DNA of 7,978 nucleotides, from positions 1 through 7,978 of the IMG/VR virus record IMGVR_UViG_2681813004_000012; one strand, written 5' to 3'. Positions 1,667 to 2,814 of this stretch are shown piece after piece (the first letter of the stretch is position 1; every line of letters starts with the position of its first letter). The notes under the pieces were generated by a model. It was not told the DNA's origin and searched no databases. It saw only the letters and a list, made by a program, of their open reading frames with translations. The DNA is from a virus (Duplodnaviria > Heunggongvirae > Uroviricota > Caudoviricetes). Both the position numbers and the translations under genes were made by a program.

Positions 1667-2581
1667 TTAGTAGTGATGTAGTGAAGGAGGTAATTCTTTG
1701 TTCTTAAGCCTTACCCATGCGGAAAGATTCGTTGGTCCGTCTGGCTCATTGATATCAACATCTCGTGTGTGGTTTATTAAAACGTCTCTCGCCATTCCAA
1801 TAACATACGAGAACTCATGACCGTAGTCGTAGCATCTGCAGGAATAGTTCGATTGAATTTGCTTTAGCGCCGGATACAGTTCGCGGAATAATGCCTGTGA
1901 GCGGTTGGCATAATCCCATAACCATACAAGACTGTCTGTTTCTTTTGCGGAAAGCCCGTTGAGCTTCTTCTCTTGTTTGCCGATTAACTCTCCTTCAAGC
2001 GGAACGCGAGCAGCAAGTGACAGAGCTTCGGTAAACTGCTCCTCGCTGATTTCTTTATATGAACACCCAAAATGAGATTTCAGTGACGACCACATGGTGA
2101 TCATCGCCTTCGCCTGTTTTTCTTTTGGCAGAGACTGACCGCGACTCATGACGAGTTGTTTAATGGCTTCCTGCTGCTCTTTGGTTATTTTGCCCGGCAA
2201 CGCCTTTTTAGCTTTCGGTGTATTTCCGTAAGACCCCGTTTTACGAATGGATGGCAAAACTTCAGCTGTCACCCATTTGCGGAATTTGTGCGGGACTGAA
2301 CCTTTATTGACGGCATCACGGCAGCGCAGAACCAATGTATACATACCTGATTCGCTCACAATGCTTAAATTCTGCTCACCACCAAGGGTGTAACTTAAAG
2401 TTACTCCCTTCTCATCGTCATCAAGTGCAGTAAGCGCCTTGCGTGAGTTAGTCAGAGTTAAAGCATCACAAACATCTTTTGCTACAAACCACGGCGCACC
2501 GCACTTGTTGATGACGCGGATTTCACTGTCGCCGAATTTGAAGATGGTGAAATCGTTTTGTGCCTTTGCTATACTTTTCAT
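1667..2581 (-). CDS. ant: Phage antirepressor, N-terminal Bro-N domain (Ant-like), 304 aa
   Basis: N-terminal ~110 aa fit the Bro-N pattern (F-x-F...IRV...PWFVAKDV...GGEQ...[11 protein letters not shown]...[17 protein letters not shown]). Sits downstream of a small Arc-like gene and is divergent from an Mnt-like RHH gene, as in P22 immI. The SD is weak. Confidence 0.85.
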
Positions 2582-2652
2582 GTCAATATTTCCCGATCAG
2601 ATTTGTTGATGTAGAAGCCTCGCCAGTTCCCGCTGTCGGGGCTTCGTTATTT
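2582..2652 (+). ncRNA. Candidate sar-like antisense RNA, complementary to the ant 5' UTR and the arc-ant intercistronic region
   Basis: Plus-strand -10-like TATACT at 2570..2575 just inside the ant start, with a weak -35. A GC-rich hairpin at 2614..2645 (GAAGC...CCCG-CTGT-CGGG-GCTTC) is followed by GTTATTTTT at 2646..2654, so the terminator is oriented for plus-strand transcription. Predicted transcript ~70 nt. Inference by analogy to P22 sar. Confidence 0.3.
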
Positions 2653-2814
2653 TTAGAGAGCATTCCGCATTTTCTCCCGGTACTTCAACCACCAAGCAAG
2701 TCCCTGAACCAACACTGAGTTTTCTGACATCCCCTCTTCCTTAGCGATGCGTTTCACCTCCTCCTTAAAACGGTACGGATACCGAAGAGTTGTCTTCACT
2801 TCATTCTTTTCCAT
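2653..2814 (-). CDS. arc: Arc-like ribbon-helix-helix DNA-binding protein, 53 aa (not in the supplied ORF track)
   Basis: Hand translation of the minus strand gives MEKNEVKTTLRYPYRFKEEVKRIAKEEGMSENSVLVQGLAWWLKYREKMRNAL, stop TAA at 2655..2653. Strong SD AAGGAG 6 nt upstream of the ATG at 2814..2812. The beta-strand/helix/G-x-S-x-N-S/helix pattern is typical of the Arc/MetJ family. Lies immediately upstream of ant on the same strand. Confidence 0.75.
   Translation of the reverse strand: MEKNEVKTTLRYPYRFKEEVKRIAKEEGMSENSVLVQGLAWWLKYREKMRNAL

Follow-up and report, generated by a model that had tools for sequence, protein, structure and literature searches.

Does a cis-antisense RNA like that of phage P22 control antirepressor translation in a prophage that carries its regulatory genes inside a lambda-type tail cluster? 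The question is raised by a 7,978-nt stretch of DNA from a tailed virus (positions 1 to 7,978 of the IMG/VR record IMGVR_UViG_2681813004_000012; hereafter the window), in which a short spacer separates the minus-strand antirepressor gene ant from an arc-like repressor gene. In P22 the spacer at this place gives rise to sar, a textbook antisense RNA. Our reading is that plus-strand positions 2546-2654 of the window very probably hold a diverged homologue of P22 sar, which would lower Ant synthesis by pairing with the arc-ant mRNA. The evidence consists of sequence features, homology to sar, a structure that is conserved and covaries, selection specific to one strand, and conservation of the -10 element at the nucleotide level; from the sequence of the element and its relatives we infer that the promoter is active, where exactly the RNA begins and ends, that transcription terminates, that pairing starts at the loop, and that Ant is affected.

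The predicted antisense RNA and its P22 counterpart

The arc-ant spacer (2582-2652) lies between the ant start codon (ATG, the complement of 2579-2581) and the arc stop codon (2653-2655). An earlier inspection of the letters alone (the sequence-only reading) had proposed a sar-like cis-antisense RNA of ~70 nt over the ant start, in the P22 arrangement; this proposal was supported by the same layout and by an alignment to the sar family of Rfam, and further by Rfam-passing intermediates, by the covariation of both hairpins and by selection of structure on the antisense strand, all described below. The predicted RNA occupies 2582-2654 (+) and would be about 70-73 nt long, its 5' end being placed by homology to P22 and its 3' end within the U-tract at 2650-2654. 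The putative promoter, Psar, comprises a -35-like GTGAAA found by a promoter scan (2547-2552, +), which matches TTGACA at four of six positions, a 17-nt spacer and an extended -10, TGcTATACT (2567-2575, +), which lies within ant codons 3-5 on the opposite strand. The -10-like TATACT pointed out earlier is present at 2570-2575; it is moreover extended by a TG at 2567-2568, in a form identical to that of P22, and 6 nt separate it from the predicted start at 2582.

Two hairpins are predicted in the RNA. Hairpin 1 (2582-2610, +; from folding and covariation) pairs 2582-2588 with 2604-2610, and its loop bears UUCCC (2590-2594), the complement of the ant Shine-Dalgarno sequence GGGAA (2590-2594, -; 8 nt upstream of the ATG), which falls wholly within the span of the antisense RNA. 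The Shine-Dalgarno sequence is as weak as had been suspected: it has no exact 4-nt match to TAAGGAGGT, and its best pairing with the anti-Shine-Dalgarno sequence, by GGGAA at -13 to -9, is worth about -4.3 kcal/mol. Hairpin 2 (2614-2645, +; from sequence, terminator scan and folding) is a G+C-rich terminator stem-loop of 13 pairs with the loop UCCC, in DNA letters GAAGCCTCGCCAGT/TCCC/GCTGTCGGGGCTTC. It is directly followed by GTTATTTTT at 2646-2654 (+), that is, by a terminator tail of GUUAUUUUU with 7 U in 9, whose T-run reaches into the arc stop codon. The plus-strand terminator hairpin claimed by the sequence-only reading, antisense to ant, was confirmed: with its G+C-rich stem-loop and the U-rich tract after it, 2614-2654 (+) has the form of an intrinsic terminator, and the terminator scan found hairpin-plus-T sites on the plus strand only. 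The minus-strand stem runs into UACAUCAACAAAUC and has no U-tract, so that a bidirectional terminator or attenuator between arc and ant was ruled out. Fold prediction, which the same reading had called for, returned both hairpins, terminator included, with a minimum free energy (MFE) of -27.6 kcal/mol over a 79-nt stretch (z = -5.4), a stability equalled by none of 200 shuffles.

The arrangement is that of P22. In its record, sar is placed at 15021-15090 (-), with the terminator at 15021-15058; Psar covers 15097-15125, ant starts at 15091 and arc ends at 15022. By this annotation, P22 sar adjoins the ant ATG with its 5' end and reaches 2 nt inside the arc stop codon with its 3' end. The element of the window occupies the same arc-ant spacer on the same strand, antisense to ant, and would likewise abut the ant ATG with its 5' end; the spacer measures 71 nt against 68 nt in P22, and the predicted RNA about 70 nt against 68-69 nt. 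Psar of P22 and the putative Psar of the window lie in the first ant codons, and pairwise alignment finds TTGCTATACT.TTCATGT to be identical, as is the outer terminator stem GAAGCC...GGGGCTTC (GAAGCC/GGCTTC), with one inner pair showing a switch from U-A to A-U. P22 sar folds into the same two-hairpin topology with similar z-score and energy (hairpin energies of -25 to -28 kcal/mol), and the element is flanked, as in P22 immI (mnt-arc-sar-ant), by ant, an arc-like and an mnt-like gene. The predicted RNA thus follows the geometry of P22 sar: it is intercistronic between arc and ant, antisense to ant, spans the ant ribosome binding site and has two stem-loops, the second a rho-independent terminator.

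On the other hand, the stem and loop of hairpin 1 differ (GUCAAUA/UGUUGAU in the window versus GUUGGU/ACUGAC in P22), as does the inner terminator stem, which has a C.U mismatch in the window, and the U-tract of the window is longer, and better, than the AACUUU of P22. The surroundings differ as well: the Ant N-terminal domain is Bro-N in the window and of P22 type in P22, and in the window the cassette is inserted between tail genes K and L, of lambda type, in a siphovirus-like prophage with E. coli as host, whereas that of P22, a Salmonella phage and podovirus, sits between genes 16 and 9.

These features suggest a mechanism. From the extended -10 within ant codons 3-5, transcription would start at about 2582, beside the ant ATG, and lead away from ant; the transcript of roughly 70 nt would fold into the two hairpins and end at the intrinsic terminator overlapping the arc stop codon. 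Because the RNA is perfectly complementary to the whole arc-ant spacer, it could pair with the arc-ant mRNA across all of it, with pairing most likely to nucleate at the hairpin-1 loop, where UUCCC faces the weak Shine-Dalgarno sequence GGGAA. The duplex would cover the ribosome binding site and less Ant would be made; added to repression of Pant by the arc-like and mnt-like proteins, such RNA control would favour the establishment and stability of lysogeny. Transcription from Pant may interfere with Psar, a possibility on which none of the argument here is based. In reviews, P22 sar is described as base-pairing with ant mRNA and blocking its ribosome binding site, and lysogeny is said not to be properly established without it.

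Conservation of the -10 element and of the RNA structure

A consensus promoter scan of 1500-3400 was not enriched over shuffles (2 sites versus 2.7 expected), and the promoter claim therefore rests on homology and codon-level conservation, not on a consensus match. Codon-level conservation was assessed on 36 distinct ant 5' ends: codon 3 was AGT in all 36, though serine has six codons; codon 4 was NTA throughout (ATA, TTA, CTA or GTA, for Ile, Leu or Val); and codon 5 was GCA or TCA in 35 of the 36. Codon 2 varied freely, synonymous changes included. Read on the opposite strand, codons 3-5 give TGnTAnACT, which was kept in 35 of the 36 distinct 5' ends. Because the AGT and NTA codons are invariant while the amino acids change, the extended -10 is, to judge from these codons, conserved as DNA and not as protein, as expected of a promoter and not of protein selection.

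The same codons bear on a different view, by which the hairpin would be a mere terminator or insulator that shields the tail operon or arc from read-through, and the -10 a by-product of the Ser-Ile-Ala codons. TATACT is indeed the complement of the codons of the conserved S-I-A motif, and the promoter scan, not above chance, agrees with such an origin; however, a by-product would not keep serine as AGT out of six codons in every case, nor hold codon 4 at xTA as its amino acid changes. Moreover, no plus-strand gene upstream is in need of termination, the upstream neighbours being all on the minus strand, and hairpin 1, which belongs to no terminator, covaries too. We therefore give a mere insulator hardly any credence, and keep to a promoter that would serve a sar-like RNA.

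The structure was examined in 240 viral-contig loci, sampled around three types of Ant N-terminus, and in phage records. Cut at the ant ATG, the spacers comprised 93 distinct sequences, of which 65 non-redundant variants were left once they had been trimmed at the terminator stem; all 65 folded singly into the same two hairpins. UUCC or CUCC, complementary to the ant Shine-Dalgarno sequence, was always found in the hairpin-1 loop, which is in keeping with pairing that would begin at the loop. Pairing was scored on a plain MAFFT alignment of these variants with an explicit two-hairpin structure, the alignment not being fitted to the structure. Standard pairs made up 93.3% of cells, versus 37-48% when the partners were slid by 1-3 columns; changes on both sides were seen in 10 of the 20 pairs (73 cells), and none of 500 shuffles matched the observed pairing, compensatory-cell count or covariation score. 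In hairpin 1, compensatory pairs numbered 4 of 7 in this alignment (A2) and 6 of 7 in a cross-genus set (A4); in hairpin 2, the outer 9 pairs were conserved and the inner stem covaried.

RNAalifold, run on the MAFFT alignment, recovered the terminator alone. It missed hairpin 1 because Stx (Shiga toxin)-type hairpin 1 and indel-bearing inner stems were out of register, and it is for this reason that the explicit structure was scored and a covariance model (R1) was built from the alignment. R1 had one strong match in the window, at 2582-2645 (+; 70.9 bits), and its other significant match there was a reverse-strand echo of the terminator (22 bits). The alignment from the model search (A3) includes such reverse-strand echoes of the near-palindromic terminator and was left out of the pair counts. 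The independent set A4, made up of the Enterobacterales copies described below and fitted to the model, was 91.5% paired versus 39-51% in slid controls, with 12 compensatory pairs.

Which strand carries the functional structure has to be decided on other grounds, since a cis-antisense helix is complementary on both strands and covariation as such suits either. The hairpins could act within the arc-ant mRNA itself, be it as a site for RNase III or other processing, as a stabiliser or as a leader that sequesters the ribosome binding site, with no functional antisense RNA at all; the leader folds too (-17.4 kcal/mol), and the ant mRNA target in P22 is itself said to be structured (this was reportedly the finding of Schaefer and McClure in 1997). 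The mRNA strand is, however, the weaker one: mean MFE over the 65 variants was -28.2 kcal/mol for the sar strand versus -19.1 kcal/mol for the ant-mRNA strand, and the sar strand was stabler in 63 of the 65, by about 9 kcal/mol (Wilcoxon p = 3e-12), because 20% of the pairs are G.U, which turn into A.C on the opposite strand. The structure is selected on the antisense strand. Moreover, a U-tract follows the stem on the plus strand only, and conservation of the -10 at synonymous and non-synonymous sites alike is explained by a promoter only. A role confined to the sense mRNA is, in our view, unlikely, and an antisense RNA of the sar type remains the preferred reading.

Relation to the sar family and to other RNAs

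Scanned as a whole at gathering thresholds, the window had no match in Rfam. In a permissive scan of 2400-2950 (551 nt) the top match was sar (RF00262), at 2583-2649 (+), with 28.5 bits and E = 0.0013, and it spanned model positions 1-68 of 68; P22, as a control, scored 97.8 bits against RF00262. The window copy is sub-threshold because its inner terminator stem, linker and tail differ. Eight IMG/VR loci that combine the ant 5' end of the window and nearly the same hairpin 1 with a P22-type terminator reached 62-72 bits, and at locus L037 the hairpin-1 loop is exactly that of the window. Similarly, Rfam-passing elements of P22-like and lambdoid prophages of E. coli and Shigella (L016, L006, L046 and phage Kapi1) match the window in ant 5' end, promoter and hairpin 1; their linker and terminator are of P22 type, unlike those of the window. 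Through these recombinant intermediates the window copy is tied, by sequence, to the curated sar members, and on sequence criteria it is a divergent, sub-threshold member of the known sar family. It also appears to be a chimera across a mosaic joint, because its terminator half resembles that attached to the GF-2-like arc gene; 2541-2909 is 78% identical to Edwardsiella phage GF-2. The Stx-type element (for example L001 3492-3565), which prophages of E. coli O157:H7 carry, is also overlooked by Rfam. A weaker permissive match in the window, ctRNA_pGA1 (23 bits), covers just the terminator hairpin and was rejected as the identity of the element.

Several lines of evidence weigh against a working sar homologue at this locus: i) 28.5 bits lies below the RF00262 gathering score of 43 bits, which is an operational cutoff from a narrow seed; ii) covariation tells that the structure is under selection and leaves its function unspecified; iii) the -35-like element is weak (its P22 equivalent is GTGTTA) and the consensus promoter scan gave no enrichment; iv) a single C.U mismatch (2623/2636) lies inside the terminator stem; and v) in the identical prophage of E. 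coli PK8241 (NZ_CP080139, about 686-695 kb; 100% identity over 2400-3000, 601 nt) the annotation gives a frameshifted tape measure gene, because of which the prophage may be defective and the circuit vestigial.

The sub-threshold score, the mismatch, the weak -35 and the frameshifted tape measure would all suit a decayed sar relic, its promoter or terminator dead in a possibly defective prophage and without regulatory effect, and so would the rarity of the variant (11 of 234 sampled loci) and of the full module (8 of 5426 E. coli genomes). Against decay of this kind, the extended -10 is intact and P22-identical, both hairpins are intact with energies and z-score on par with P22, the U-tract surpasses that of P22, no reading frame of ant, arc or mnt is broken, and 11 independent viral contigs carry this variant without change. 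We consider a relic quite improbable and retain a sar homologue that would act on ant.

Small structured RNAs that block antirepressor translation near the ribosome binding site are also represented by the c4 RNA of P1/P7 and the anti-immunity RNA of N15, as reviewed in the literature. c4 is processed from the transcript of its own target and acts via short complementary patches, whereas the RNA of the window is predicted to be a convergent cis-antisense RNA; neither the full scan at gathering thresholds nor the permissive scan of 2400-2950 gave a c4 match in the window, and nothing suggests homology. The 24B_1 RNA of Phi24B was rejected as a counterpart, as it targets a different antirepressor locus. 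Homology-based annotations of sar exist for P22-like phages such as epsilon34; we found no description in the literature of sar in immI-like cassettes inside lambda-type tail clusters or in Stx phages, and nothing relevant on sar-like transcripts in enterohaemorrhagic E. coli (EHEC) or Stx prophages or on RF00262.

Antirepressors decide between prophage silence and induction, and Shiga-toxin phages of E. coli carry the same cassette; a sar-type RNA beyond P22-like phages would be an overlooked post-transcriptional layer in models of prophage induction. The Rfam model is too narrow for annotating such sar copies, and in several public records the ant start is wrongly set across the spacer, so the element stays hidden. 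For this window alone, the result is a routine, if neat, homology assignment. Of more interest is a broader by-product, namely an apparently portable sar cassette found with several Ant N-terminal types, many upstream genes and a diversified hairpin 1.

Gene context, distribution and mosaicism

The window is a lambda-type tail gene cluster whose tail genes, by the list of open reading frames (ORFs), are all on the minus strand: I/K-like genes (330-1651), gene L (3254-3952), gene M (3952-4281), a tape measure gene (4278-6838) split in two ORFs (4940-6838 and 4278-4844) and, past the tape measure, G/T- and V-like genes. Between K and L the cluster is broken by a three-gene cassette. It comprises ant (1667-2581, -), for a 304-aa antirepressor with a Bro-N N-terminal domain and P22_AR_C by Pfam; the arc-like ribbon-helix-helix repressor gene (2653-2814, -; 53 aa), whose Pfam Arc score of 17.5 bits lies below the cutoff; and a divergent mnt-like Arc-family repressor gene (2917-3237, +; 106 aa; Pfam Arc, 69.9 bits). 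In pairwise alignments, the C-terminal 168 aa of Ant are 65% identical to P22 Ant and the N-terminal domain is unrelated to that of P22; the arc-like product is 38% identical to P22 Arc over 29 aa (E 3e-5), with length and position as in P22 arc, and the mnt-like product is 47% identical to P22 Mnt over 43 aa. The Arc and Mnt alignments span the ribbon-helix-helix cores. The setting is of immI type: ribbon-helix-helix repressors resembling Mnt and Arc accompany an antirepressor of P22 type. The RefSeq annotation of E. coli PK8241 has no RNA feature in the arc-ant spacer.

Between arc and mnt, an 18-nt sequence, AGCAATATGCCATCATTG, is repeated exactly and in direct orientation at 2853-2870 and 2880-2897, 27 nt apart, and inverted ATGGCATTATGCC/GCAATATGCCAT motifs occur there as well. 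The repeated motifs of the ATGGCAT(T/A)ATGCC type at 2835-2897 (no strand assigned), candidate operators by the P22 layout, are probably of Arc/Mnt type and placed around divergent Pant and Pmnt promoters; a consensus scan found no sigma-70 site in this intergenic region (2835-2897). One terminator-like hairpin lies just downstream of ant (1649-1630, minus strand; GACCCAGC/GCTGGGTT plus TTTTAT), and another at 3228-3245, near the mnt stop codon, was called on the minus strand and is therefore in the wrong orientation for plus-strand mnt. The bracketing of the immI-like insert by these two hairpins (1630-1649 and 3228-3245) is in keeping with a moron that is transcribed on its own.

When one genome per species was scanned for a structural DNA pattern, 28 loci were found, of which the covariance model confirmed about 24, all in Enterobacterales (Xenorhabdus, Yersinia, Pectobacterium, Hafnia, Serratia, Citrobacter, Photorhabdus, Erwinia, Pluralibacter, Mangrovibacter and others). 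Four pattern matches outside this order (Anaerosolibacter, Acinetobacter, Centipeda and one metagenome-assembled genome) had no model match and were taken as chance. Among 5426 complete E. coli genomes, 457 showed DNA similarity to window 2400-2645, which ended at the end of the terminator stem, 2645. The element adjoins the ant start in every sampled lineage, and it was found with all three Ant N-terminal types.

The three N-terminal domains, Bro-N (window), P22-type (L002 15091-15993) and Stx-type (L001 3132-3491), are mutually unrelated; all that they share is about five initial codons and the Psar -10, and the P22_AR_C C-terminal domain is common to the Ant proteins of the window and of P22. 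Taken at the sequence level, this implies that domains have been shuffled just downstream of Psar in ant. A mosaic joint lies at 2645/2646: among IMG/VR loci L003-L082, the arc-side sequence falls into at least 8 unrelated classes, and the ant 5' end and spacer are conserved. A second joint, at 2611-2613 in the linker between the hairpins, is seen in the comparison of L037 with the window.

We tentatively raise the possibility that the sar cassette (Psar -10 in ant codons 3-5, hairpin 1 and terminator) is a portable translational-control module that recombination in Enterobacterales has joined to antirepressors with unrelated N-terminal domains (Bro-N, P22-type, Stx-type and others) and to no fewer than 8 upstream genes that are likewise unrelated, and that the covarying hairpin-1 types are specificity classes through which the sar/ant pairs of prophages sharing a host might stay orthogonal or be deliberately cross-reactive. 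If so, the types would amount to an RNA-level immunity code analogous to P1/P7 c4 heteroimmunity, and the window copy would be one class, a chimera whose 5' half is linked to ant and whose 3' half is linked to arc.

In public records, ant starts have been set at an upstream in-frame codon, which gives an apparent 4-11 nt overlap with arc and masks the 63-71 nt spacer; extended starts of this kind occur in L001 (NC_049944; 3489-3572), L243 (GF-2; 1612-1622), L244 (PhiR5_1) and L245 (Kapi1). To judge from sequence conservation, the true ant start is likely the conserved M-x-S-[IL]-A beside the element.

One relative of the Stx-type ant, L203 (IMGVR_UViG_3300045988_096329, about 480-640), has no match to the sar model; in the equivalent place it carries a different hairpin and T-run (CATCGCTGGTTGTAAGCCAGCAGATG..CGTTATTTT), possibly an unrelated replacement antisense terminator. 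In Xenorhabdus beddingii (L253, NZ_MUBK01000057, 1473-4719), three immI-like cassettes stand in tandem within about 3 kb, each ant-type start having its own sar-like element (2295-2359, 2921-2990 and 3985-4050), one of them beside a truncated 49-aa ant that starts MTSIAI; multiple copies were also found in L258 and L269.

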